This document shows, in pieces, positions 13,504-28,125 of a stretch of 64,000 nucleotides of DNA. The notes under the pieces were generated by a model that worked only from the letters and a program-made list of their open reading frames with translations, searched no databases and was not told the DNA's origin. Within the stretch, counting starts at the first letter, position 1. Every line of letters starts with the position of its first letter. The position numbers and the translations under genes are program-made. This stretch comes from Acidobacteriota bacterium (GTDB lineage: Bacteria > Acidobacteriota > UBA890 > WLXD01): assembly GCA_965205505.1 (NCBI GenBank), contig CBDBHB010000009.1, positions 1,728,001 to 1,792,000 on the forward strand, given 5' to 3'.

Positions 13504-15840
13504 CAGTCTTGCCGCAGGGCGATGGCTGGGTCGACTGCTACAGCGCGGCGAGCCGGTATCACGATGGCGATCAGTGCGGCGGCGGCGAGCGCCAGTAGCG
13601 CGGTCGTGAAGGTGATGGGATCGCTCGGCTGAACCTCGAACAACAGTCCTCTGAGGACGCGACCGAAGGCGATCGCGCCGGCGAGTCCGATCGCCAGCCC
13701 GATGACCACCTGCACCATGCCCTGACGAACGACCATCCCCAGAATGCGCTGTCGCTGTGCACCTAGTGCCATCCGTAGGCCCATCTCGCGGGTTCGCTGC
13801 GTGATCGAGAACGCCATGACGCCGGCGATACCGGTTACCGTGACGATGAGCGCCAGGACGGCGAAGATGCCCAGTAGGGCGGCGGTCAGCCGCGGCGACG
13901 CTACTGCGTCGGCGCGCAGCGCGGCCATCGGATGCAGGTCGCTGATCGGGTTGGCGCCGAGAGCATAGGCGGCGTCCTTGACGCTCTGGCCAGCGCTTGC
14001 CGGATCACCCACCGTTCTTAGCATGAGCCACGTCGGCATGCCGGCCTGACCGAAGGGACGGTAGAACTCCGCCGTGACAGGTGTTTCCGGACCATAGATT
14101 CGTGTATCGCCCGCCACGCCGACGATCGTGATCCAGGTGTCGCCGTCATCGAAGCTGACGCGTGCACCGATCGGCTCCTCCTCGGACCAGTACAGCCGAG
14201 CGAGTGTCTCGTTGATTACCGCTACCGGGGCGGCGTTGGGCTCGTCGCGGCTATCTAGCAAGCGGCCGCTGAGCAGCGGAATCCCGAGGACCTCGAAATA
14301 CTCATGCGTGACGACGTTGAGGTCCAGCTGGGGTCGTGTCTGGGTCTCCTCAACGGCGCGTCCTTCGATGACGAAATCAGCCAGGTTCGGATTCGTCTGC
14401 CGGTACGGCGGCTTCTGCGTCAGCGCCGCGGTTCGCACCAAGGGACTGTCACCGACCGCAACGACCAGCTCTTGCAGGTAGTCGTGCATCTCGGTCATGT
14501 CGTTGAACGCCGTGAAGTCCAATGAAACCCGTGCGGTCAGCACGTGCTCGGTGTCGAAACCCGGGTCGATGGCTTGCAGCCGCAGGAGGCTGCGCAGCGT
14601 CAGGCCCGCACCGATCAGCAGAATGAACGCCAAGGCGACCTGCGCGACGATCAACGCACGGCGCAGCCGCAACCCACCGGTTGCGGTGGAGCGGGCTCCG
14701 TCCTTGATGGCGCCGCCGAGATCGCGCGTGCCGGGAAACGCCGGGAAGGTGCCGAAGGCGATGCCGGTGCCGAGCGAGATCAGCAACGTGAAGGCCAACG
14801 CCCAACCGTCGATGGTTACCGTCGCGGCGCGCGGCGTGTAGCGCCCGGCGAACTCGACGAGCATATCGAGTCCGACATAGGCGAACACCAAGCCGACTGC
14901 GCCACCGATTATCGCCAGGACCGCGCTCTCGGTGAACAGCTGGCGCATCAGGCGGACGCGGCTGGCGCCGAGTGCCGCGCGCACCGCCACTTCCTGTTCT
15001 CGACGCATCACGCGGGCCAAGCTCAGGTTGGCTACGTTGGCGCAGGCGATCAGCAGCACCAGCCCGGCGGTGGCCAGCAACATGAGCAGCACCGGTCGGG
15101 CGTTCCGGGTGAGCTCCTGCTTGAGGTCGACGACCCCCGCCGTGAGGTTCATCTCGGCTGGGTAGGCGTCGGGGAAGTCTGCTTCGAAGCGCGAAGCCAC
15201 GCTGGCGATCTCAGCGCTGGCGTTGCCAACCGTTGCGCCGCCCTGCAGCCGGCCGAAGACGAACAGGTTGCGGAAGGCGTTGCGGTTGCCCGCCATGTTG
15301 CGCTCTGCGTTGGCGCGGTACGGGCATGCAGAGGTTGGCATGTAGACGTCGACTGCGTTGGGGAACTGAGGAATCGGCGGTAGCACGCCTACTACGGTGT
15401 GCGGACGCGTGTTGACCTCGAACACCTGCCCGACGACGCCAGGATCTGCGCCGTGGGCGTTGCGCCAGTAGTCGTAGCTCAGAACTAGGACCGCCTCGGA
15501 GTCGAGGTCGTCCTCACCTTCCACGAACGTCCGTCCCAGCAACGGGGCCACCCCGAGCGTGTCGAAGAAATTGTCGGAAACGACACCGGCCTGGATTCGT
15601 TGCGGCTCATCCTTGCCGAGCAGCACGAAGAACATCGTGTGGTACTCGACTAACTCCTCGAAGCTGGTGGCTTGCTCACGGTAGTCGTAGAGCTCCGGGA
15701 TAGAGGCTTGGACGTTGGCGATCCGTGCGCCGGGCGCGGACTGCTCCAGCAGCACCAGCCGGTTGCCGTGCTCGTAGGGCAGAGGCCGAAGCAGTACCCC
15801 GTAGATGATGCTGAAGATAGCCGTATTGGCACCGATGCCG
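13503..15840 (-). pseudogene. ADOP-family (duplicated MacB-like) permease, 3' part after island insertion
   Basis: Begins at GIGANTAIFS; LLIACANVANL, RAALGASR and RTREMGLRMALGA motifs; the missing N-terminus lies at 27799-28125. Confidence 0.9.
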
Positions 15841-16079
15841 TCCGCCATAGTAATACAACTAAAGTATGTGTTTACAACAGTTTACAGGAACTTCTAGTGG
15901 ACTATCACCTCACTATTCCCACCATTAAATCTGGGAATAAAGCGAACTTCTCCGGACCTCTGGGGAGCCCTGAACACACCGAGCGCCGAGGCCGCAATCG
16001 CACCCGGGGCTGCAACTTCACCACGCATCGCTGCCTCTGATTGCCCTATCTTCGGGTCGCTAGCACAGGGAGCCGACCT

Positions 16080-16367
16080 TCACGGGCGCGCCCGAGCCGT
16101 ATCCTTCACCCGTCCTGCTCCTCCAGGTGCCCAGGGCACTGCCTGGTCCCATAGCGCCTCCAGGGCTTCGGTGTCGCCGGCAGCGCGGGCGCGTACGAGC
16201 GCTGCCAGGAGTGCCCCATCCATCCGGAACACGTCTGTGCGCCGGTACCAGGTCGGTGGCCCTCCAGCCGCGGTGAGCTCCACTGCCTGATCGGTCACGG
16301 ACAGCACACGCCGCAATGCGGCGCGCCCACCCGCCATGCGGCACACAACCAGCTGGCCTCTCTTCAT
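16080..16367 (-). CDS. Hypothetical protein (island cargo)
   Basis: 95-aa ORF with ATG start, divergent from the 16437 ORF; no recognised motif. Confidence 0.45.
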   Translation of the reverse strand: MKRGQLVVCRMAGGRAALRRVLSVTDQAVELTAAGGPPTWYRRTDVFRMDGALLAALVRARAAGDTEALEALWDQAVPWAPGGAGRVKDTARARP

Positions 16368-16436
16368 GCAGCACGATAAGAGCTTAAGCTAGGAAGTCTC
16401 GGGTGAACCCCTAACCTACTGACGAGAGACAAGGTA

Positions 16437-16877
16437 ATGGCTATCAGCAAGGCCGTTCGTGACGGACTCCAAGCAGAACAGGCGAGCGTTGCGGATGAGA
16501 TGGCTCAGCTTGAGGCACGGCTGCAGTGGCTGACAACACGACAGACCGCCCTCCGCTTAATCCTGGAACAAGAGGCAGCACCTCCGGAACAAAAGGCCCC
16601 GCCGGACACCGGATTACGTCGACTCGGTGTTCGTGATGGGGTTCGAGCGGTACTCAAGGAAGCTGGGGCGCTGAAACCTGCCCAGGTTACGCGGAGTCTG
16701 CGCGATTGTGGCTATCAGTTCAAAGGAAAGACGAAGCCGGGTGCGCGTGTCGGACAGGAGCTTTGGGCGATGGCCAAGTCGGGCACGCTGAGCAAGAACT
16801 CCGCTGGAGAGTACTTCTTGCCCGGTGAGGAACAAGACGAACCGGAGGGCTACGCCACCGCCGCCCAGCTCCGATGA
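16437..16877 (+). CDS. Hypothetical protein, coiled coil plus possible winged-helix domain
   Basis: Heptad-like N-terminus; C-terminal LKPAQVTRSL...LWAMAKSGTLSKNSAGEY resembles a wHTH; AAGG upstream. Confidence 0.55.
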   Translation: MAISKAVRDGLQAEQASVADEMAQLEARLQWLTTRQTALRLILEQEAAPPEQKAPPDTGLRRLGVRDGVRAVLKEAGALKPAQVTRSLRDCGYQFKGKTKPGARVGQELWAMAKSGTLSKNSAGEYFLPGEEQDEPEGYATAAQLR

Positions 16878-17218
16878 GGATGCCTCAGCCGTTGTCCGGA
16901 ACGAATCAGCCGGCGCAGGTGCGGACAGCGGTACCGAGGCAGAAGGGTCAGGAGCATCGAGTTGACGGTCTTGAGGTGGTGCTGGTGAGTTCCACTCCAT
17001 TCGATCCGTCACTGCCGGGTGATGGACCTTAGCCCCTTCGGTGGCGCTCAGGGTCCGGTGGCGTTTGTCTTTCACGACGGCGGCACGACGCCGCTCGATC
17101 TTTCCTTTCACTTCCTCGACGCCGATGGCGGTTCCGAAGTTACCCCGGAACTGTGCGCCGCCGAGACCGGTGGCCGCGTCCATGCATCTGCTCGAAGTCC
17201 GCGACGAGAAGTCGACCT

Positions 17219-17275
17219 TAGGTTCAGGACCTAGTGGGGGCAACCCCGTGGAGGTTCAAGTCCTCTCTTGGGCAC
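17219..17275 (+). pseudogene. tRNA-Leu(CAG) 3' fragment (anticodon arm to acceptor stem), att-site relic
   Basis: TAGGT-TCAGG-ACCTA anticodon arm, long variable arm GGGG-CAA-CCCC, GGTTCAAGTCC T-loop, CTTGGGCA acceptor strand; no D-arm or 5' strand upstream. Confidence 0.85.
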
Positions 17276-17425
17276 TTGATGTAACCTATTGACAGGTAAC
17301 GAGTTGCGGAAGGGAGCCGGCCGGCGCGGCCAGGTTCCTTTCGGCGTTTCAGGGCCAGAAAGTAACGAACAGGTAACGGGAGGCGCGTGTCCCGGCAGCG
17401 TAGCTCCGAACTGGAGCATCGCTCC

Positions 17426-17612
17426 TACTTCCTCCGGGCCGTTAGCTCAGTTGGCAGAGCACCGGCCTTTTAAACCTGCCCCGCCCGGTTTCCGGAACCC
17501 TGCAGCGACGGGCGATTCCGCGCTTTCTCCCGTCGACATGGCCACTTACGAGTTTACGTAGGGTTGCGCAGTTTACGCAGCTTTAGCTCCGCGTAAGGGC
17601 AAAACAAGGGCG
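17426..17612 (+). repeat. Copy 1 of ~190-bp repeat: tRNA-Lys(TTT) 5' half (17436-17473) fused to a non-tRNA tail
   Basis: GGGCCGTTAGCTCAGTTGGCAGAGCACCGGCCTTTTAA breaks off after the anticodon loop; tail has repeated GTTTACGYAG and AAGGGC motifs. Confidence 0.85.
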
Positions 17613-17859
17613 GCACGAGGGGCGCGACGCGGAAGGTGCCTGCTCTCGCCTACCCTGCTAACGCGCTCGCCGAGCCGACTCGGCCCGATCCAACGGACGC
17701 TCGCCCCGTAAGATTCCTGCCGTCTAATCAACGCTCGGGTCGGCGTAAGTTCCTGCATAGAAAGAAATTGACGACGGGCGCCCTGGTGCTACAGCCGTGG
17801 GGGCTGGTGTCGAACACGCGAACAACGGCGACCCAATGGGCAACAGACGCCAACGGTCA

Positions 17860-17977
17860 CAGCGGTAATGGATTACCGCGGACACTGTACGAGTACGCGT
17901 GCCACGAGGGGAACTACTCGCTCGCCAATACCCTGAGTGGCGCGCGCTATGAGGAGACCAGCGAGGAGAACAGATAG
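17860..17977 (+). pseudogene. 3' fragment of a conserved hypothetical gene (YEYACHEGNY family)
   Basis: LYEYACHEGNYSLANTLSGAR is a C-terminus I recognise from a widespread secreted hypothetical family; no intact 5' part. Confidence 0.55.
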
Positions 17978-18137
17978 CGCCGGTCGCCAGCGCGGGCGAC
18001 ATGGTACGGTGGCATGGCTCGATGCGTGGATGCTGCATTCGACCAAATGAGCTCACACAGACAGGAGAACGGCGATGGGCGACGATCGACACCGCGTGGA
18101 TCAGACAGGGCTACGAACCCCCGACAACACGCCGACG

Positions 18138-19337
18138 ATGCCGCGAGCAGGCCTGGCACTGGCGGGAGTGCTGGCGACTGTTCTGCTGGTGACGGTGTCT
18201 GTGCTGAGCACGACCGCGACCGTCGACGCAGCGTCGCATCCGCCGATCCAGGCGCAACAGTCGGGCGATGCCGCGATGCCCGACACCGATTCGATGAGCG
18301 ATGAGGAGTTCGTAACGCTGCTGGCGTCAGCAGAGCTGGGCCCCTACGCGCGTGAGGATGCTCTCGCCGATACGTTCTCGCTAGAGCGCGCCGTCAGCTT
18401 CCTCGATCGGGTTGCCCTGACATGGGGTGAGAAGTACGGCTGCGTCACCTGCCATACGAACGGTTTGTATCTCACGGCACCGCCCGAGATCTTCGGCGAG
18501 CGCCGTGCATTCGAGATCGTACACAGTCAGGCTGCCCGTTTCGTGCGCTCCTGGCGCGCCAACGACGTGCCTGGCAACGATGCGCCCGCCCCAGACGTGC
18601 CGGACGTCGTTGGCACGTCTGCGTTTCTGGCCATCAACGAGGCCCAGTCCGGTGAAAAAGAGCTCAGCGACATCACCGTGGAGGCGCTCGACCGCGCCTG
18701 GTCGCTACAGGACGAAGGGGGCCACTGGACTGGGTTTGTATCCAACTGGCCGCCGTTCTACGATCGCCAGTGGCCCGTCACGCTGATGGCGATCGCTACC
18801 GGCATGGCTCCGGGCGACTACGCCAGCACTGACGCCGCCGTGGAGGGGATGCGCAGGATTCGCGACCACATCGACGCGAACCCGCCCGAGTTCGCCCACA
18901 ACCGCGGCATGCTGCTGTGGGCCGGCAGCGTCAACGAGGGGCTGGTCAGCGACGCCGATCGCCAACGCTGGATCGACGAGCTTCTCGATCTGCAGCGTGA
19001 CGACGGTGGCTGGGCCTCGGGAAAGCTCGGCGTATGGCGTATGCGCAAGGGGCTCGACACCGATCCCCCGGTTACTGTCGAAAGTGATGGCTACGGCACC
19101 GGCTTCGTCATGTACGTCCTGCGACAGGCCGGCGTGCCGGCGTCGCACGCCGCGATCCAGCGCGGTGTCGGCTGGTTGAAGGCGAACCAGCGGGCCGGAG
19201 GGTACTGGTGGACCCAGTCCATACGCAATAGCTTCACAACCTCGAACTTCCTGACGCACGCCGGCACGACGTTCGCGGTCAAGGCGCTCGCGGCCTCTAC
19301 GATCGAAACGGGAGGCGTCGCCAACACCGAGCGTTGA
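18138..19337 (+). CDS. Exported prenyltransferase / squalene-cyclase-repeat protein with a CxxCH motif
   Basis: Hydrophobic N-terminus, GCVTCHTN, QW repeats (LQDEGGHW, LQRDDGGW, NQRAGGYW), SDGYGTG; an upstream start at 18075 is also possible. Confidence 0.75.
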   Translation: MPRAGLALAGVLATVLLVTVSVLSTTATVDAASHPPIQAQQSGDAAMPDTDSMSDEEFVTLLASAELGPYAREDALADTFSLERAVSFLDRVALTWGEKYGCVTCHTNGLYLTAPPEIFGERRAFEIVHSQAARFVRSWRANDVPGNDAPAPDVPDVVGTSAFLAINEAQSGEKELSDITVEALDRAWSLQDEGGHWTGFVSNWPPFYDRQWPVTLMAIATGMAPGDYASTDAAVEGMRRIRDHIDANPPEFAHNRGMLLWAGSVNEGLVSDADRQRWIDELLDLQRDDGGWASGKLGVWRMRKGLDTDPPVTVESDGYGTGFVMYVLRQAGVPASHAAIQRGVGWLKANQRAGGYWWTQSIRNSFTTSNFLTHAGTTFAVKALAASTIETGGVANTER

Positions 19338-19427
19338 GCGCCACCCCCGAACGTGCTGATCGTCGGCGTTGACACTCGGCCGTCCGCCGTAGCGAAGACT
19401 CGTAACGCCGTGCCGCGCGAGCGCTTA

Positions 19428-19616
19428 TACTTCCTCCGGGCCGTTAGCTCAGTTGGCAGAGCACCGGCCTTTTTAAACCTGCCCCGCCCGATTCCGGGAA
19501 CCCTGCAGCCATCGGCGTTTACGTGTTTTCCATAGCTGACATGGCCACTTACGAGTTTACGTAGGTTTGCGCAGTTTACGCAGCTTTAGCTCCGCGTAAG
19601 GGCAGAACAATGGGCG
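19428..19616 (+). repeat. Copy 2 of ~190-bp tRNA-Lys 5'-half repeat
   Basis: Same head (one extra T in the loop) and near-identical tail GACATGGCCACTTACGAGTTTACGTAGG...GCGTAAGGGCA; central part diverged. Confidence 0.85.
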
Positions 19617-19906
19617 TTTCGCGAAAGAGGCAGGGCTCGGTCGTAGGTCCCGGACCGTCCGTTGCGGTCGTACCGCCGCAACTCGCCGTCGTCACGACCG
19701 CCCGGCAATCGAATACCGCTCTGGCCGGGCGGTCAGTGGTGCCAGCCGTTACTTCGGAACCCCGAGGCGCCGTCTGAGCTACGGCCTCAACCGGGCCATT
19801 CCCCCGAGAACGTGGTCCATCAAAACGACGGATCAGTTGCGGTCGCCTCGGGGGTCGCCGATCCCGCCAGTCCGCCGTTCGAGCCCCTCGCGTTACCGTG
19901 CAGGGC

Positions 19907-21109
19907 TCACCAGATTTCAGCCTCTACGAGGATCCTGGGAGGGTCATAGTCATCCGCTCCCGGGTGAGTCTGGAGGATCTCGCGCAGGCGACGGACCGCC
20001 AACAAGGCTGCGTGAACCAGATGGTACTCGTTGTCCATGAGGGTAGGGTCATACTCATTCTCATCGAGAGCATGCGCTGGTCTGTTTCGCTCATTCCTGA
20101 CGTCCTTTAGCGCGCTGATGACGACGCACCGCTCTTCAGTCGCGTGTTCAAAAGCGACCTCCAGAAACTCCCCCAGCAGCCGGATCGTTCCTTTCTCCTT
20201 AATGATGACCCCGTCGTCAGTCTCGGTTCTTGTCTGCAGATCCACCTTGCCCCTGAAGAACCTCTTGTTCAGGTTGTCGGACAGCATCTTGTCGGCCGTG
20301 AGCGCGAGGTCCTGGTAACTTCGGAGGGTGGGCTTGGTTATCCAGGCGAACTGCGCCGGCGCCCCGCTGGCGAAGTTCTCGCGGAACAGAGGAGGCTCTC
20401 TGATCAGTTCACAGATGACATTGATCTGTTGAATCTCCTGGACGACGGCCTCGAAGGGAGATAGGCGGTTCGCAAACTCCCCTTCAACGCTCGTCTTGAA
20501 GTAATCCGAGTCCAGGAGCAGCCCCTCCCGGTCGACCTCGTATGATTTCCAGTGCAGCTGATGCTCAACGTTCGCCTCTGCGAGATCTGCGAGAATCGCC
20601 GTTACAAACCGCGCGCTCCCCCCGTCGCTGTACGCTGCCCCCCACCGAACGTAGATCTTCCCCGGGTCTGCTAGGCCGCGCTCACGAATATAGTCGCTCC
20701 GCCGGACAACGAAGCCGGAAACCCCGGACTCGTCGAACCGATATCGCGGATCATCGCGGTACCGTTCGAGCGCTTGGCGATCGAAGAAGAAATCCTCAAC
20801 TTGTGACCCACTGTGCCGCAGCGCCTTTGTGTAGGGGCCCAGCTCGTCACCTGCCATGGGATCTCTAGGCTCAAGAAGCAATGCGGTCGGGAACACCCAT
20901 AGCTCGTCTCGCCCTTCGGGGATGCGAACGAGACCTTCTTCCGCGAGAGCTCTGACTGCGTCAGAAACAGCTTCTGAGGCTCTCGACGAGTGTGAGCGCT
21001 CGTCGACCAGTGTTACGAGCTTCCAGAGTGGGATGCCACAATGAGGGTGGCCCTCGAGCCACGAGTAGGCGATCGCATCGGCTACCACTTCCTTGAGGTG
21101 GCGGGTCAC
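19907..21109 (-). CDS. Conserved hypothetical protein with C-terminal HEPN-like RxxxxH motif (possible defence nuclease)
   Basis: 400 aa, AGGAG RBS, lower GC than flanks, RNERNRPAH in a helical C-terminus. Confidence 0.6.
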   Translation of the reverse strand: MTRHLKEVVADAIAYSWLEGHPHCGIPLWKLVTLVDERSHSSRASEAVSDAVRALAEEGLVRIPEGRDELWVFPTALLLEPRDPMAGDELGPYTKALRHSGSQVEDFFFDRQALERYRDDPRYRFDESGVSGFVVRRSDYIRERGLADPGKIYVRWGAAYSDGGSARFVTAILADLAEANVEHQLHWKSYEVDREGLLLDSDYFKTSVEGEFANRLSPFEAVVQEIQQINVICELIREPPLFRENFASGAPAQFAWITKPTLRSYQDLALTADKMLSDNLNKRFFRGKVDLQTRTETDDGVIIKEKGTIRLLGEFLEVAFEHATEERCVVISALKDVRNERNRPAHALDENEYDPTLMDNEYHLVHAALLAVRRLREILQTHPGADDYDPPRILVEAEIW

Positions 21110-21570
21110 CTCTCTTCCTCCTTTAGATCAATGGGGATGGCGAGCGCTCGCGCTTGACTCGCCGTGTCTGAGATCCGCATTGGCGAACCCCCTTGGTTGA
21201 CGGTGGCGCGCCGCGGATCGGCTAAACGCTTCCACGTGCATGGCTGCTACTCTGCCGGGAAGCTCGGGAAGCTCGGGAAGCGACAACCCTACTCTTGGAG
21301 CCGGCTAGACAACACCCTTGTTCCCTCTCGCTTACGTGATCTCTGCCCTCGTGCTGCCCTCACGTTGGATCGCTGCGCTGGCCTGGATGTGAGTACCCGA
21401 GGCTTCGCAAGGCTCGCAGTCGATCCGCTCACCGCGCTACGGTTGCGCAATGAGCAAGCGTCTTGAAGGTAGTGAACCCCTTCACAGATCTGGTGTACCG
21501 GTTGGTGCTACGGCCAACGATTTCTGGCAGTGGTCGTGACCTGACCCCACGGTTAGTACCACGTCTTATC

Positions 21571-22455
21571 TCAGTAACTCGGTGCTGACAAGGGGTTGTT
21601 GAGGCCGGCGAAGCGGAGCGTAGCCGGCTTCAACAACAGCGCCTCCGGGGCCGGTGGTCGGTAGCCCAACGAGCTGTGCGGTCGCATGCGGTTGTACTGC
21701 TGCCTCCATCTCTCGATCAGAACCTTTGCCTCCTTGAGCGTGTAGAAGATCTCGCCGTTGAGCAGCTCGTCTCGGAGCTTGCCGTTGAAGCTCTCCACGT
21801 AGCCGTTCTCCCACGGCGAGCCCGGCTCGATGAACAGCGTGCCCACACCGAGCCTACCGAGCCAGTCGCGAACCGCCTCGGCGGTGAACTCCGGTCCGTT
21901 ATCGGACCGGATGTGCTCAGGTATGCCCCGGTGCACGAACAACCACCCGAGCCGCTCGAGCACGTCCTCACAGTTGAGCTTCCGTGCCACGTCGATCGCC
22001 AGGCTTTCTCGTGTGTACTCATCGACGATCGTCAGCAGCCTCATAGCCCGACCCTCGTGCGTCCGGTGATGAACGAAGTCATACGCCCAGACGTGATCTT
22101 TGCGCTGTGGTCGCAGCCGGATGCACGAGCCATCGCTGAGCCACAGCCGGGCTCGTTTGGGCTGCTTTGTCGGTACTTTCAGCCCCTCACGCCTCCAGAT
22201 ACGCTGCACTCGTTTGTGGTTCACCCACCAGCCCTCCATACGCAACAACGCCGTCACTCGCCGATACCCGTAGCGCCCGTATTGTCGGGCTAGATCCACG
22301 ATCCGCTCCGTCAACATCTGCTCATCGCCCGGTTCTCTTGGCATGTACCTGTGTGTCGTGCGTGGTTGTTTCAGTACCCGGCACGCCCGCCTCTCGGAGA
22401 CGCCCAGCCGCCCCCGTACATGCGCCACCGCCTCGCGCCGTCGAGCTGGGCTCAG
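21571..22455 (-). CDS. IS3 transposase OrfB (DDE), reached by -1 frameshift
   Basis: [35 protein letters not shown] and RPHSSLGY. Confidence 0.93.
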
Positions 22456-22730
22456 AAGTTTCCCTCCGCGACTTCCTTCAGGATCGACAGGTCGAGCTCT
22501 TTCTCCGCCACCAGTTTCTTGAGCCGGGCGTTTTCTTTCTCCAGCTGCTTGAGCCTTCTGGCCTGGTTGACCTTCAGCCCCCCGTACTCCCGCCGCCACC
22601 GATAGTAGGTGTGCTCGGTGATCGCTAGCTTGCGGCAGGCATCCTTGACCGTCCCGCCTTGCGCCAGCTCCACTTCAGCCTCCCGGAGCTTGCGTACGAT
22701 CTGCTCGGCGCTGTGCCTCTTCGTCGGCAT
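22452..22730 (-). CDS. IS3 transposase OrfA (HTH)
   Basis: [22 protein letters not shown] and [13 protein letters not shown]; GGAGG RBS. Confidence 0.93.
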
Positions 22731-23187
22731 TCTGACCTCCCCTTTTCGACCCAGATCGTGAGATTACCTCTGGATCCGTTTTGGGGGGTCAGGTCACGTA
22801 CGCGACGGCCATGCCCTGCAGGGCGGTCGCAACACCGCCGAACGCCACCGTCGTCTTCTGACCGCAGCGGCGATAGCGAGCGTTGCCAAGATATGGGGAC
22901 CCGCTAATTCGCTTCAGCTCGCTATCCTCTAAGTGCCTCATCGGCAACCCTCATCGCGCGCCATCGCTCGCACTTCGTCTGCGTCAGCAGCGCTCACGAT
23001 CCACTCCGCGGCGGTCAGCGTCTCGAGGTCCCGGCCCCACCATTGCCGGAGATTCTCGAGTGCCTCGTCCTCTGGCCAGCGCTCACCGTCGAAGTCCGCC
23101 ACCAGGGCCACCGCACCGAGGAACTGCTGCCGCGAGCCGATCATCCCGTACAACTCCGCGAACTCGTAATCCACCCGAAGAGGCCAC

Positions 23188-23424
23188 TGTCGCACGGTTG
23201 TCGCAGTGATTCGAGCGGCTGCTGCACCCTCCTGTCGCACGGTTGTCGCAGGATTTGTCGCAGGCTCGGGGACAGCGGAATTCCGCTGCAACACCCGTAG
23301 TGCCGCCTCTTTCGCCCTCACGCCCTGCCTCCTTGTGTCGCACGGTTGTCGCACCGCTTTGTCGCACCGGCACGCATTCGTTGTCGCACAGTCGCACCCC
23401 CCTATGGGGGTGCAGACTGCGACA
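23188..23424. repeat. Iteron array, putative replication origin of the island
   Basis: Nine direct TGTCGCA copies (23188, 23199, 23233, 23244, 23256, 23336, 23347, 23360, 23382), one inverted copy (23418) and a GCACCCCC-CTAT-GGGGGTGC palindrome, directly downstream of the helicase gene. Confidence 0.8.
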
Positions 23425-23448
23425 CGTGCAACGGCGGGACGGAACGCC

Positions 23449-24852
23449 CTATTTGTCATCGAGGCTTCCCTCGGCGATCGCTGCTCGCCTGTGCCTGTAG
23501 ATGGTTGCTCGATGGAGACGGAGCTCGGAGGCCACAGCGCCCGGAGACAAACCATCGTTTAGCAACTCAATGACACGCTGCCGTGTCTGACCTTCGACGT
23601 CGGCGACGAGCCAGCTCATGAAGCCGTTCTCGTCGGTCGCGAGTTGCGCTTCGAATGAAGCTGCGTCGCCGCCGCTGAGCCCCCTGGCTTTCTCGAACCG
23701 AACCTCGAACCGGGCGCCATCCTCAGCCCGGTAGTCGCCCGGGCGCTGAAGCTTGACCACCACATCGAGAACATCCTCCCGGCGAGAGGTACCGCGCTGA
23801 GCACCGTTCTTGCCAGCGTGGTGCACGAGGAGGACGGCCACTCCTCGCCGCCTCAACCCCAGTAGAAGATCCTGAGCGGGTCCCCATGCTTCGGCCTCGT
23901 TCTCCGGACCGGCTCCGAACAACGTGGAAATATTGTCGAAGACTACGAGCTTGGCGTCCCCAAGGATCGCGTCGATGAGGCGCTCCCCCTCCGGGCTATC
24001 GAGCGCAGGCACCGGGATCTCCTGGGCGTCCGCGGCGAGGATTCGGAACGGGATTCTCGCGGTGTCGACGTCCGGAGCCAGCCCGGCGAGGAGATGACTC
24101 GTGCGCGTCTGTAAAGTTTCGATAGGCATCTCGCCATCGACGTAAAGCACAGGCGCCGGCTCAGCTGCCTTCCAGCCCATCACCGTTTGCCCGGTCGCAA
24201 CGCCGAGCGCAATGGAGAGCGCTACCCACGTCTTGCCGGTCCCGCGATTCGCGTACAGCAGGGCCAAGTCCTTCTCATAGAACCAAGGCGACAAGAGGGG
24301 CTGGCGAGGGGGTAGACGAAGTTCGAGATAGTCCGCGAGTTCATACACCCGGAACCGTTCCGCGGCACGGCCCGCACCGTTTGCGATCGCCGCGATGGCC
24401 TGCTGGGCTCCCAAGAGGACTACCTCAGGATCCGCGCCCGGGTCCATCGCCATGTTGCGGATAGTCTCTGCCTCGGCGATGGCGTCGCGCAGGATCGCTT
24501 TGTCCTTGATGCTGCGCGCGTACTGCTCGACGTTGGCCGCCGCCGGGATACCGTCGATGAGGCCGGAGATGTACGCCGCGCCGCCGGCGCGCTCGAGCAC
24601 GTCGCGTCGGGTCAGCTCCTCGCGCAGCGTCACCGTGTTGATAGTCTCCGAGCGCCTCGAGATCGCGCCCATTGCCTCATAGATCAGCCGATTGGCGTCG
24701 CCGAAGAAGTCGTCCGGAGTCAGGATCTGCGTGGCGGTGTTGAACGCCTGGTTGTCGAGCAACACCGCGCCGAGGATCGCCCGCTCGGCCTCGTCGAAGT
24801 GCGGCAGCGCGCGCTCCTCGTGCCGTGTCCGGACTTGACGCAGCCGCCCCAC
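23449..24852 (-). CDS. DnaB N-terminal domain fused to AAA_25/RepA-like helicase with C-terminal HTH
   Basis: LPHFDEAERAILGAVLLDN, Walker A ANRGTGKT, VLYVDGEM, VVFDNIS and LLVHHAGK; GTG start coupled to the upstream stop. Confidence 0.85.
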   Translation of the reverse strand: MGRLRQVRTRHEERALPHFDEAERAILGAVLLDNQAFNTATQILTPDDFFGDANRLIYEAMGAISRRSETINTVTLREELTRRDVLERAGGAAYISGLIDGIPAAANVEQYARSIKDKAILRDAIAEAETIRNMAMDPGADPEVVLLGAQQAIAAIANGAGRAAERFRVYELADYLELRLPPRQPLLSPWFYEKDLALLYANRGTGKTWVALSIALGVATGQTVMGWKAAEPAPVLYVDGEMPIETLQTRTSHLLAGLAPDVDTARIPFRILAADAQEIPVPALDSPEGERLIDAILGDAKLVVFDNISTLFGAGPENEAEAWGPAQDLLLGLRRRGVAVLLVHHAGKNGAQRGTSRREDVLDVVVKLQRPGDYRAEDGARFEVRFEKARGLSGGDAASFEAQLATDENGFMSWLVADVEGQTRQRVIELLNDGLSPGAVASELRLHRATIYRHRRAAIAEGSLDDK

Positions 24853-25103
24853 TACGCGACCTCGCCTCGGTCGCCGACACAGGCGGTACCGTTGAGCCCG
24901 TTGGGCTGTCGAATGTCCAGACCCCGGCCCGCTAGGGCCTCCAGGACCGCCTCCTGCATGCATCCGGCGTGACAGTGCAACAAGCACCTGCCCGTCGCGC
25001 TCAGGCTCGGGTTGCGGTCCTTGTGCGCCGGGCGGCGGCACATGCCGCCATGTCCGTTGGATCGGCGCTCGAGCGTGCGGACGATCTGCTCCAGGCTGGC
25101 CAC
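24852..25103 (-). CDS. Primase-type zinc-binding domain (possibly degenerate)
   Basis: CRRPAHKDRNPSLS...HCHAGC pattern typical of satellite primase N-termini. Confidence 0.65.
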   Translation of the reverse strand: MASLEQIVRTLERRSNGHGGMCRRPAHKDRNPSLSATGRCLLHCHAGCMQEAVLEALAGRGLDIRQPNGLNGTACVGDRGEVA

Positions 25104-25104
25104 G

Positions 25105-25329
25105 TCACGTTGACGGCTGGCGAGAGGCAGGCTGATCGCCCCCCGGCAGCGCGGTCGGACGGCTCGCTAACCACGCCTTGATGTCCGCCAGCCGCCAGGC
25201 TACGGCACGGCGGCCGATACGCACCGGACGGGGAAACTCCCCCGCATCCATCGCAGCATAGATCGCTGACCTGGAAAGTAGCGTGATCCGCTCGACTTCA
25301 GGACGCTTGATGAGGACTTGCTGCTCCAT
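25105..25329 (-). CDS. alpA: AlpA-family excisionase/regulator
   Basis: EVERITLLSRSAIY..MDAGEFPRPVRIGRRAVAW; GGAGG RBS. Confidence 0.92.
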   Translation of the reverse strand: MEQQVLIKRPEVERITLLSRSAIYAAMDAGEFPRPVRIGRRAVAWRLADIKAWLASRPTALPGGDQPASRQPST

Positions 25330-25440
25330 GAGGAACCTCCTTGGTTTTGCTGGTTCCTCCCACTGTGCAGGGGTACCTCTGGCCTGTCATGGGTGCGAGT
25401 TTCCGAAAACTCGCCCCCTCGGCCAGCGTGGCGCAACCGA

Positions 25441-26091
25441 CTACCGATTACCCCGCCATATGTCGCGCATGGTGCCGTACGTTTTCACAGCGTGGTCTCT
25501 TTCGGCGAGCACCTGGGCCACAATGTCGCAGGCGGAGGCACGCTCGGTAATTTCATTGCGCGTCTCAGGCATACCGCACTTCGTAAGCAGGTGGACCGCC
25601 CATCGGATTACGTCATTTCGCGCGGCCATCTTGGGGGCCGGCCCTCTGCTGCCCTTGCCGCCTTTCGGTCGCGGACACCGGCCGTGGATTACGTCGCCCA
25701 CCCAACGGTGCAGGGCTTTCCCGAGTGGACGTTCGCCTTCGGTGCGCACGAACGTCCACGCCAGCGCGTCCCAATCTACGGGGTTAGTACGTGATCCTTC
25801 GATAGTGGATTCGATATCCTCGCGCAGGGTCTTGTCTTTGCCCCGAAGAAACAACGCAGCGTACATCCATACGTTGTAGTTGTGGGCGATCGCTGGGTTT
25901 CTCCACGACGGGTCCAGGTCGAGCCACAAGCCCACAAGCGCACGCGCATCGTCGTTGGAAATGCGCTCTTTCTTATCAATGAATCGTGCCACGTGCTCGC
26001 GGTGTTGACGGTGAAACTCATCGTTCCGGGCTTTGTCTAGGACGGCACGCACAGGCAACACTGGTTGCCTCGCGCGCTCTTCTTCACCCAT
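25441..26091 (-). CDS. Hypothetical protein between int and alpA
   Basis: ~216-aa ORF at a position typical of satellite regulators; start uncertain. Confidence 0.55.
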   Translation of the reverse strand: MGEEERARQPVLPVRAVLDKARNDEFHRQHREHVARFIDKKERISNDDARALVGLWLDLDPSWRNPAIAHNYNVWMYAALFLRGKDKTLREDIESTIEGSRTNPVDWDALAWTFVRTEGERPLGKALHRWVGDVIHGRCPRPKGGKGSRGPAPKMAARNDVIRWAVHLLTKCGMPETRNEITERASACDIVAQVLAERDHAVKTYGTMRDIWRGNR

Positions 26092-26395
26092 GAGCAAGCA
26101 CCGGCACGATGGTCTGGATCGGGGCGGGCAACCTGGAGTGCGGCCCGAGCCCACTGATCAATGCGTACAGCAGCATCAGGCCCAGGATGACGGCCGGGAT
26201 CAGCCTCAGCACGCGGCCCGAAAGGTTGATCATGGGCGGGCGGAGATCGCCCATCCGCACGTTGCCGAGCTCACCTCTGTCCATATCATCTCTCCGTAGG
26301 CACGGGGGCGGTGGGGTAGACACGTCTTCAGGGTAGCGTGCGTGGCCGTGTGCCAACCCACTTCAGCAGGCAGGGAACCGACCCGGTACTGCTCC

Positions 26396-27649
26396 CTAGA
26401 CAGGGCGCAGCATCGGCACCACCTTGCCGCCCTCAGCACTCAGGTAAGCGGCCCAGTCTTCCATCAGCTGCCGGCGCCGCTCCAGCAGGTCGGAGCGCGC
26501 ATAGGCCGCCTCGGTCGGGTCGCGCACCGCATGTGCCAGCGCCGCCTCCATGACCGCCCGCGGTGCGTTGGTGCACTCCGCCGCCCAGTCCCGGAACGAT
26601 GAGCGAAACCCGTGCGGCACCGCTTCAATGCCCAGCTGCCGCAGCACCCGGGAAAGGGTCGCGTCCGCCAGCGGCCTGCCGGCCCGTGCACCGGGAAACA
26701 CCAGCCCCTCGCCATCCCTGAGCCCCCGCGCCTGGCGCAGGATCTCCATTGCCCGGCCCGATAGCGGCACCCGGTGGGCCCGGTTCGATTTCATGCGCTC
26801 GGGTGCAAGAGTCCACTCCCTCGCCTCCAGGTCCATCTCCTGCCAGGTAGCCAACCGCACCTCGCCGGAGCGGGCCGCCGTCAACACCAGAAACTCCAGG
26901 GCCAGCTTCACCACCCCGGAGGCATCCGAAGCCCGTACCGCCTCGATCGCACCGTCCACCTCGGCATGCGGCAACGCCCGCATATGCTGTCGCCGCTTGC
27001 GGTGCCGTGGCAGCGCCTGGGTGATCGCCTCACCAGCCGGGTTGTCGCCACGGTACCCCTGCGCCATGGCCCACTTCATCACCGCACCGATGCGCGCCCG
27101 CACCCGCCGTGCGGTCTCGGCCTTGTCATGCCAGATCGGACCCAGTACCTCCAACACCTCGGCCGTCGTCACCTCCGACACCGGCATCTCACCGATGCGC
27201 CCGTACGCATAGGTGCGCAACTCCGTTTTCCATTGCGCCGCATACTTGGCGTTGCGCCACCCGGGGCGGTGCATCTCATACACCTTGGCCGCTGCTTGCG
27301 CGAACGTCGGCATGCCCTCGGCCCGGCGCTTGTCTGTCAGCGGGTCACCGCCGGCACGGGCCAGCTTGCGGTTGGCAAATGCCACCTCGCGCGCCTCCGA
27401 CAGCGACACCAAGGGGTAGCCTCCGAGACCCAGTTCCCGGCGACGGCCCTGGATCACGATCCGCTGTACCCAGCTGCGCGCTCCGCTCGGGATCACGTTC
27501 AGGTACAGGCCGTGTCCATCGCAGTACCGGCCCGGCTTCATTACCGTGCGTACGAACGCCGCCGACAGGGCCCGCTCCGGGTGCTTGCCGCTCTTGCGCC
27601 GAGGGCTGGGTTTCGGTGCAGTTGCTTGCGCATCGGCGATATTCTGCAT
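26396..27649 (-). CDS. Tyrosine integrase, P4/IntA type
   Basis: Arm-binding DGHGLYL...GLGGYPLVSLSEARE; catalytic ARSGE, MKSNRAH, HGFRSSFRDW, LAH and AY. Confidence 0.95.
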   Translation of the reverse strand: MQNIADAQATAPKPSPRRKSGKHPERALSAAFVRTVMKPGRYCDGHGLYLNVIPSGARSWVQRIVIQGRRRELGLGGYPLVSLSEAREVAFANRKLARAGGDPLTDKRRAEGMPTFAQAAAKVYEMHRPGWRNAKYAAQWKTELRTYAYGRIGEMPVSEVTTAEVLEVLGPIWHDKAETARRVRARIGAVMKWAMAQGYRGDNPAGEAITQALPRHRKRRQHMRALPHAEVDGAIEAVRASDASGVVKLALEFLVLTAARSGEVRLATWQEMDLEAREWTLAPERMKSNRAHRVPLSGRAMEILRQARGLRDGEGLVFPGARAGRPLADATLSRVLRQLGIEAVPHGFRSSFRDWAAECTNAPRAVMEAALAHAVRDPTEAAYARSDLLERRRQLMEDWAAYLSAEGGKVVPMLRPV

Positions 27650-27798
27650 CCCCCTCTTATTCCGCCATTAAAGGCGGGAATGTAGCGGATTGTCCGGGAA
27701 CACGCAAGATGGACGAATACTCGTAACTGTCTGACTCTACTGATGCTTAGGGACTAATAGGTCAACTTAGGAATGCACCGGATCTGAACGATGGCAGA

Positions 27799-28125
27799 GA
27801 TGCCGAGCGCCAATGTGAGCACCGCCGTGGCGGTGAATCCCCAGCTCTTGCCGAGCGTCCTAAGTGCGTAGCGGATGTCTTGTATCAGCATGTCGAAGTG
27901 GTTCCCCTTGCGCTCGTCGCGGCACTCTTCCTTGAAGCGCTGCGTGGCGCCGAAGCTCATGCGAGCCTTCCGCTGGGCTTCCTCGTGGCCCAGGCCCTGG
28001 TGTCGGTACTTGTCGGTTTCCATCTCGAGGTGGAACGACAGCTCGTCGTCGAGCTCTCGATCGTCCGCCCGTCGCCCGTCGCCGCGCAATCGCTCCAGCA
28101 AGTCTCCCCAAGCTCTCTTGCCCAT
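27799..28125 (-). pseudogene. ADOP-family permease, 5' part (interrupted by the island)
   Basis: [12 protein letters not shown] permease prefix; [26 protein letters not shown] then breaks at the att core. Confidence 0.92.

Follow-up and report, generated by a model that had tools for sequence, protein, structure and literature searches.

A 64,000-nucleotide (nt) stretch of the genome of an Acidobacteriota bacterium (hereafter the window; GenBank assembly GCA_965205505.1, contig CBDBHB010000009.1, positions 1,728,001 to 1,792,000 of the forward strand) contained two direct repeats of approximately 190 bp, each of which carried the 5' half of a tRNA-Lys(UUU) gene followed by a conserved tail. 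The genome, designated G000, comprised 9 contigs, and the window corresponded to G000:C9:1728001-1792000. The repeats, named copy A (17426-17612) and copy B (19428-19614), were 87-89% identical according to repeat finding and pairwise alignment, and the distance from the start of copy A to the start of copy B was 2002-2003 nt. The end of a coding sequence and one intact gene lay between the copies, while an open reading frame (ORF) and an insertion sequence (IS) followed copy B (Table 1). No tRNA gene was detected in the whole window by ARAGORN, and neither an Rfam family at the gathering score nor a group I intron was found there.

Both copies had the same layout, namely 10 nt of TACTTCCTCC, then nt 1-38 of tRNA-Lys(UUU), then a tail of ~140 nt. 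The tRNA part of copy A (17436-17473) was identical to nt 1-38 of the tRNA-Lys(UUU) gene of the genome; that of copy B (19438-19476) was identical over nt 1-36 and held one additional T in the anticodon loop. Divergence of both copies from the intact gene began directly after the anticodon loop, each tRNA part being an end fragment of a gene broken in that loop, and public contigs of intact tRNA-Lys genes parted from copy A exactly behind 17473. No orphan 3' half of tRNA-Lys, as would belong to a split or intron-containing tRNA, was found anywhere in the genome. The motif AAGGGC occurred three times on the plus strand of the surrounding 12-kb island, and all three occurrences were in the tails. 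When copy A was compared with the whole genome (BLAST, E ≤ 10), 23 matches were obtained and only two covered the tail, one with 100% identity and the other with 89% identity at an E value of 1e-65. The third-best match was the intact tRNA-Lys(ttt) gene at C9 c[2106941-2107014], which aligned with the tRNA part only. The repeat was thus present in two copies in 5.98 Mb, and these were the only ones.

These analyses reproduced most of what a sequence-only reading of the window had described: two ~190-bp direct repeats 2 kb apart, TACTTCCTCC in front of both tRNA halves, tRNA-Lys(TTT) 5' halves ending exactly after the anticodon loop, and a conserved tail with GTTTACGYAG and AAGGGC repeats. The same reading had placed a 3' gene fragment and one intact gene between the copies. 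The intact gene was found as described; the fragment (17885-17977) proved to be no more than the 3'-terminal 30 codons of a gene that belongs to a multi-copy family.

The distribution of the tail was determined next to that of the tRNA half. With the tail alone as the query, matches among 26 genomes of the order were found in G000 and in a second genome, G004, only, plus two short ones at chance level; the tail of a further genome, G014, was detected in this search only with a query anchored by the tRNA. Among 185,579 species genomes, a tail-only pattern gave one match, on a G014 contig; in the metagenome collection, a looser tail-only pattern gave one contig, L070. A decayed relic of the junction was present in the genome G003. 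In L070 a LonB-like gene was followed by the 5' half and then by the tail. In G014, which belongs to the same order and another family, a tRNA-Lys 5' half came after purA, and a homologous tail, 74% identical, then ran to the contig end. Another contig, G014:C223, began inside a tyrosine recombinase gene, of which 89 C-terminal residues were covered and whose stop codon lay 27 nt before an intact tRNA-Lys gene, followed by tRNA-Glu. The native order purA/tRNA-Lys/tRNA-Glu was seen in G000 and, apart from a 6.6-kb insertion, in G003. Hence, the upstream side in G014 had the 5' half only and the downstream side had the integrase and the whole tRNA gene, the pattern predicted if an element supplies the 5' half. 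Every tail seen followed a tRNA-Lys 5' half, the point that the sequence-only reading had proposed to check, and the genes upstream were ordinary chromosomal genes. The 6.6-kb insertion between purA and tRNA-Lys in G003:C2 (L053 9880-16516) encoded a Mutator-family transposase, a GGDEF-EAL protein, a response regulator, an aldo-keto reductase and a peptidase; it showed neither an integrase nor an orphan tRNA half.

The flanks of the two copies had different origins. Positions 17213-17476 of the window were 72% identical to G004:C10 (L071 8339-8593), where the homologous sequence led into a tRNA-Lys gene with 4 nt deleted, tRNA-Glu and tRNA-Thr. Since the homolog of the copy A spacer lay beside a full tRNA-Lys/Glu/Thr cluster, the spacer was taken as the flank of the targeted tRNA-Lys gene and copy A as the outer left attachment site (attL). 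No integrase remnant was detected in the spacer 5' of copy A. The 90 nt located 5' of copy B aligned with 91% identity with the flank of a tRNA-Lys gene on G004:C7. There the reading frame ran on upstream as the C-terminus of an integrase (TEDDMRDALGAVAARTRAKQGRSVGTAGEARRGEDS, followed by the stop), which was cut by an IS and matched the G014 integrase in tblastn at an E value of 1.3e-5. The flank 5' of copy B being an integrase 3' end, copy B was interpreted as a fusion to which an older element contributed its right end and a younger one its arm. The repeats of the AAGGGC type, ACAAGGGC(A/G)AAACAAGGGC, were found in the tails of copy A, copy B and L070 and again at the 3' end of the integrase genes on G014:C223 and G004:C7, so that the attachment arm shared its repeats with the integrase-proximal arm. 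Therefore, the tail was likely the P' arm of the element's own attachment site (attP) of the tRNA-Lys(UUU) type. The tRNA-Lys gene of the G004:C10 cluster (L071 8557-8626), which was the second tRNA-Lys(ttt)/Glu/Thr cluster, lacked the 4 nt in the D-arm region, and the cluster was preceded by a 3' fragment of tRNA-Leu and a reversed fragment of another tRNA.

The integrase fragment of G014:C223 was searched against 401 genomes of the phylum, and matches at E ≤ 1e-8 were obtained in 54. Among the best 30 integrase loci, eight ended just upstream of a co-oriented tRNA gene (two each of Lys ttt, Lys ctt, Arg tct and Ser gct), seven were convergent with the 3' end of a tRNA gene in the classical arrangement (one, L089, from G166), two had a tRNA gene ~0.9 kb off and 13 had none in the locus. 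The nearest homologs within these 30 loci (55-62% identity) were the co-oriented ones. The layout of the family was an integrase co-oriented with the tRNA gene and ending 27-80 nt upstream of it. An orphan 5' half accompanied this layout in three of the four loci examined, the G007 locus being the one without it.

Complete elements with a full integrase and a full co-oriented tRNA gene downstream of the orphan were present in G000:C7 (two elements) and in G135. The first of them occupied G000:C7:14150-20730, where tRNA-His and tRNA-Arg were followed by an orphan tRNA-Lys(CUU) 5' half (43 nt, 95% identity) and a tail with TTACG and GGGACA repeats. The body of this 6.6-kb element encoded a Toprim protein, a helix-turn-helix (HTH) regulator and a 406-residue integrase (C7:19435-20655), the gene of which held GGGACA repeats at its 3' end, and the element closed with an intact tRNA-Lys(ctt) followed by tRNA-Leu(tag). 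The genes His-Arg-Lys(ctt)-Leu(tag) were contiguous in G002, G003 and G006, which therefore provided empty sites for this element. The second element of G000:C7, of ~7.6 kb, was located at tRNA-Arg(UCU) and had a 39-nt orphan. In G135 an element of ~7.2 kb was found at tRNA-Lys(UUU), with a 38-nt orphan of 100% identity and GGGAAAG repeats on both arms. Matched repeat pairs on both arms were recorded in two of the three complete elements, and none was clear in the tRNA-Arg element. The integrases contained Phage_integrase and Phage_int_SAM_1 domains and were 69-79% identical to each other. G000 encoded two full-length integrases of the family, which belonged to the tRNA-Lys(CUU) and tRNA-Arg(UCU) elements and were associated with other arm repeats. 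The tRNA-Arg(UCU) element (G000:C7:591586-599248, L105) also encoded a PycTM Pycsar-effector-like protein, an IrrE/M78-like peptidase and a DDE_3 transposase, and its cargo looked like a defence cargo.

Based on these data, it was concluded that the repeats were very probably fossil attachment-site junctions, left by small integrative elements that had inserted in tandem and targeted the anticodon loop of tRNA-Lys(UUU). In the proposed mechanism, attP would consist, in this order, of the 3' end of the integrase gene, bearing arm-type repeats, a short spacer, a tRNA 5' block (about -10 to +38/43) and the P' arm, the integrase gene lying at the right end of the element. The crossover is inferred to take place in the anticodon loop, where the 5' block of the element would join the chromosomal 3' half and regenerate the tRNA gene. 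Because the element would bring its own 5' half, the native one would be displaced onto the far arm and would stay attached to this P' arm, the tail. If the regenerated tRNA gene were then entered by a second element, the resulting junction would be made up of the right end of the older element, the 5' block and the newer tail.

In this order of events, copy A would be the outer, attL-type junction, and copy B a hybrid, in which the last six integrase codons, spacer and 5' block would be the right end of an older element, E1, and the P' arm would come from a younger element, E2. Since copy B was preceded by the last six integrase codons, the stretch from copy A to copy B was taken as the decayed older element of a tandem array. 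E1 would correspond to the 2 kb between the copies, with the integrase gone except for the six codons, the P-arm repeats gone and passenger DNA inside. E2 would begin at tail B and be interrupted by the IS3-family element at 21537. The shared repeats of the arms may be protein-binding sites. Accordingly with what was found at both copies, the tandem att junctions offered as one option by the sequence-only reading were borne out, copy A being of the attL type and copy B a hybrid of an integrase end, a 5' block and a tail. The junctions are relics, and no evidence of present activity was found at the locus.

Table 1. Features along the block, in coordinates of the window.
Feature	Position	Strand	Remark
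tRNA-Leu(CAG) 3' fragment, 58 nt	17219..17276	+	Left edge of the block common with G004:C6; matches the 3'-terminal 58 nt of the tRNA-Leu(cag) gene C9 c[2327407-2327491] with 100% identity
Spacer 5' of copy A	17277..17425	+	Homologous to the flank of the full tRNA-Lys/Glu/Thr cluster in G004:C10
Copy A core: TACTTCCTCC and tRNA-Lys(UUU) nt 1-38, displaced 5' half (putative attL core)	17426..17473	+	
Tail A, putative P' arm of attP	17474..17612	+	TTACG-type repeats 17543-17581, AAGGGC repeats 17594-17612; aligned with copy B, G014 and L070
Putative remnant of the older element E1	17613..17884	.	
Passenger fragment: 3'-terminal 30 codons from a multi-copy gene family (LYEYACHEGNYS...)	17885..17977	+	
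Passenger cargo: intact gene for 420 residues, with a CxxCH motif and weak repeats of terpene-cyclase type	18075..19337	+	
Last six codons and stop (RRSEDS, stop) of a deleted integrase gene, putative right end of E1	19385..19405	+	
32-nt spacer and copy B core, putative element-borne 5' block of E1	19406..19476	+	
Tail B, putative P' arm of the younger element E2	19477..19614	+	86-87% identical to tail A
400-residue ORF, putative first gene of E2	19907..21109	-	
IS3-family insertion sequence, ends the block common with G004	21537..22797	-	rve, rve_3 and HTH_21 domains

Several observations weighed against the interpretation as tandem junctions. The flank of copy A showed no integrase similarity and may be either native or itself element-derived. 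The integrase remnant before copy B was just 21 nt long, and its identity rested on the longer homolog in G004:C7. The two G014 contigs were not physically linked. Further, the DNA behind the tails of copy A, copy B and L070 was unrelated, so that no conserved element body was tied to this tail. This genome had no regenerated tRNA-Lys(UUU) gene preceded by an integrase and also no cognate integrase, and the completeness of the array was therefore not demonstrable here. The sole intact tRNA-Lys(ttt) was located 360 kb away, on the other strand, beside purA. No full cognate tRNA gene followed in the same orientation in the window, and the integrase within the island was represented by six codons and a stop only. 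The sequence-only reading had directed attention to integrases beside the tail: an integrase end of six codons was found before copy B, and a cognate integrase was not found in the genome.

The DNA next to the tails was also compared beyond the copies themselves. The sequence following the tail in L070, the 400-residue ORF after tail B and a 407-residue ORF after the tRNA-Lys(CUU) tail were unrelated to each other; a conserved gene adjoining the tail was sought and none was found, and the proteins of the complete elements had no match in the window. No homolog was found for the ~270 nt at 17613-17884. Positions 17885-17977 encoded 27 of 31 residues identical to a full-length gene of G003 in tblastn, in the C-terminus only. 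The product of the 420-residue gene matched the Pfam family SQHop_cyclase_C at an E value of 1.2e-4, below the cut-off, and its NCBIfam matches were weak; its homologs (86-88% DNA identity) were located in a metabolic cluster in G003. The 400-residue ORF had no Pfam or NCBIfam match. The 93-nt coding end at 17885-17977 (LYEYACHEGNYS...EENR, stop) was represented at many loci in G002-G004 with 80-96% identity and showed a very high summed contig depth in four public read runs; it was a conserved C-terminal module of a large gene family without a Pfam name.

The repeats were embedded in a larger mosaic. Positions 15841-27799 formed a 12-kb insertion, absent from G004:C11 and G002:C29, between the gene of a MacB/FtsX-type permease and a small ORF. 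The left and right parts of this island resembled an island on G004:C5, and the right part contained a P4-like integrase (26396-27649) and a DnaB-N/AAA_25 helicase-like protein with an HTH domain (23449-25041). The 4.3-kb block at 17219-21536 was 99.6% identical to G004:C6, where it was preceded by an intact tRNA-Leu(cag) and continued into defence-like genes. Homology to the G004:C5 island stopped at 17286, homology to G004:C6 began at 17219, and identity to G004:C6 ceased at 21536, next to the IS3-family element. Since the block matched G004:C6 and the left and right parts of the island resembled G004:C5, the repeats had arrived at the present place secondarily. The whole block would have been moved into the island probably by recombination in the tRNA-Leu 3' fragment at 17219-17276, which was proposed as the crossover point. 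No original empty tRNA-Lys site was identified for the block of the window. The integrase at 26396-27649 was considered as the cognate enzyme and rejected, as it was P4-like (Arm-DNA-bind_3), had an unrelated C-terminus and was part of the 12-kb island (ends 15840/27800).

Additional observations were made around the island. The IS3-family element had dozens of copies with 91% identity in G003 and several with 100% in G004, and the expansion of IS in the genus looked recent. About 20 places in G000 carried the 3' 58 nt of tRNA-Leu(CAG), frequently bordered on the left by conserved DNA. Several of these places fell between tRNA-Leu(cag) and tRNA-Lys(ttt), at 2.20-2.33 Mb, which suggests that classical tRNA-Leu islands form a long tandem array or were scattered repeatedly. 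Beyond the block, G004:C6 (L054 14260 to L055 9164) encoded a large AAA_11 helicase with an MTES_1575 nuclease, an SNF2 helicase, a metallophosphoesterase and an SMC-like ATPase. ARAGORN also reported a tRNA with a four-base anticodon (agca) at C9:617574-617648 of G000 and two unusually long (88-nt) tRNA-Ala genes at C9:2680513-2680600 and C9:2962668-2962755.

It was also considered that the 2-kb unit was an integrase-less cassette, excised and captured in trans by integrases of the family and accreting host genes in an integron-like manner, with the displaced tRNA promoter driving the cargo. Two co-oriented cores with P' arms bounded the unit, a non-mobile gene of host type lay inside on the same strand, and two full-length integrases of the family were encoded in the genome. 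However, those integrases were tied to the tRNA-Lys(CUU) and tRNA-Arg(UCU) elements with different arm repeats, and the content of the unit was the same in G004, i.e. wherever the block occurred. Moreover, copy B had no P-arm AAGGGC repeats and six integrase codons were all that was left of the enzyme, and the pair consequently resembled attL x attL, not attL x attR. Such a cassette was regarded as improbable. A still living mini-element of this kind, with cargo captured and excised in trans, an integron-like array and a promoter-bearing tRNA 5' half transcribing the captured gene, was considered very unlikely. No promoter-like site was found in 17200-19800 by a sigma-70 consensus scan, a result that neither supported nor excluded transcription from the orphan halves. 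Of 24 public read runs listed, 15 contained at least half of the sampled words, and the contigs of four runs from four studies were compared with 15000-23000. The public contigs broke at the repeats (17473, 17572, 19457 and 19575), and no circle or deletion joint linking the copies was found among 15 of 21 contig joints, although contigs miss rare forms and are thus silent on excision. The excisable cassette accreting host DNA, the way in which the sequence-only reading had understood the tandem junctions, was not upheld, given the missing integrase, the lost P-arm repeats, the constant content and the fact that no circle or deletion joint was seen.

The alternative in the same reading, a gene for a small RNA headed by a tRNA half or a tRNA-derived mobile repeat resembling a short interspersed element (SINE) or a miniature inverted-repeat transposable element (MITE), fared no better. 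Such a unit would be consistent with the ~190 nt conserved in three lineages behind a sequence that was also found upstream of full tRNA-Lys genes. The genome, however, held just two copies rather than many dispersed ones with defined ends, and terminal inverted repeats and target duplications were lacking. The fold was no better than that of shuffled sequences (z = -0.31; 71 of 200 shuffles folded at least as well), the covariation term was -0.12 kcal/mol for four sequences, and no Rfam family was assigned. The conserved parts were short direct repeats that recurred in integrase 3' ends, which fits predicted protein-binding sites. A small-RNA gene or mobile repeat was judged extremely unlikely. 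A local segmental duplication followed by divergence, or an assembly artefact, would place two copies in direct orientation 2 kb apart, as was observed. The upstream flanks, however, were unrelated and of different origins (copy A followed a tRNA-Leu spacer, copy B the 3' end of an integrase gene), and the tails differed by about 11-13% while the block was 99.6% identical between two assemblies. Contig pieces from all four runs matched the block. Together with its presence in the second assembly, G004, this agreed with the earlier argument against an assembly duplication, and an origin of either kind was hardly credible.

Classical integrases that target tRNA genes, such as the P4-like ones, carry the 3' part of the tRNA. 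The recombination logic, an attP of a few hundred bp and arm-type repeats on both arms were the same in the elements described here, and more distant homologs of the family were convergent with the tRNA 3' end in the classical arrangement (7 of 30 loci). The difference was that here it was the 5' half that was duplicated. This places the element upstream of the regenerated tRNA gene, so that it must also supply whatever drives the transcription of that gene. Integron attC cassettes similarly have serial co-oriented short recombination sites around single genes. In contrast to attC, the tail consisted of direct repeats and not of an imperfect palindrome, and no sign of cassette exchange was seen. 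No IntI-like gene was present among the 21 ORFs scanned, and the tail, folding no better than shuffled sequences, did not have the folded structure of attC.

The closest counterpart was the 5'-fragment class of the Islander collection (Hudson, Lau and Williams 2015, PMC4383910), in which 159 of 3919 tDNA islands were listed with a 5' tDNA fragment (Table 1 of that work) and 125 tandem arrays of two or more were reported. The sequence-only reading had called retained 5' halves atypical; this held as the majority rule, and the 159 islands document the minority (PMC4383910). This anticodon-centred class with the site A crossover likewise involves a tyrosine integrase and an island in a tRNA gene, and sequence carried by the island restores the gene; the displaced end fragment has the same orientation and, by the Islander rule, lies upstream of the regenerated gene, and tandem arrays occur (PMC4383910). 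Unlike that class, the window held junction relics only, with neither an integrase nor a regenerated tRNA gene, and the block had been relocated. The portion of the Islander account used here does not cover this integrase family of Acidobacteriota, its distance of 27-80 nt from the integrase stop codon to the tRNA gene or the arm repeats in its coding end (PMC4383910). The repeats of the window fit the Islander-type class of displaced 5' fragments, which is documented but uncommon, and what is added is the family and its anatomy in Acidobacteriota.

Thus, puzzling repeats of tRNA halves were explained as ordinary site-specific recombination approached from the less common side. An integrase family of Acidobacteriota is located directly upstream of tRNA genes (Lys, Arg and Ser), replaces their 5' halves and carries arm repeats in its own coding end. 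For annotation, orphan 5' halves with such arms mark the far (older) ends of islands, and tandem copies record the order of arrival, the oldest element being furthest from the tRNA gene. Island finders that expect 3' fragments, or an integrase beside the fragment, would miss such islands.

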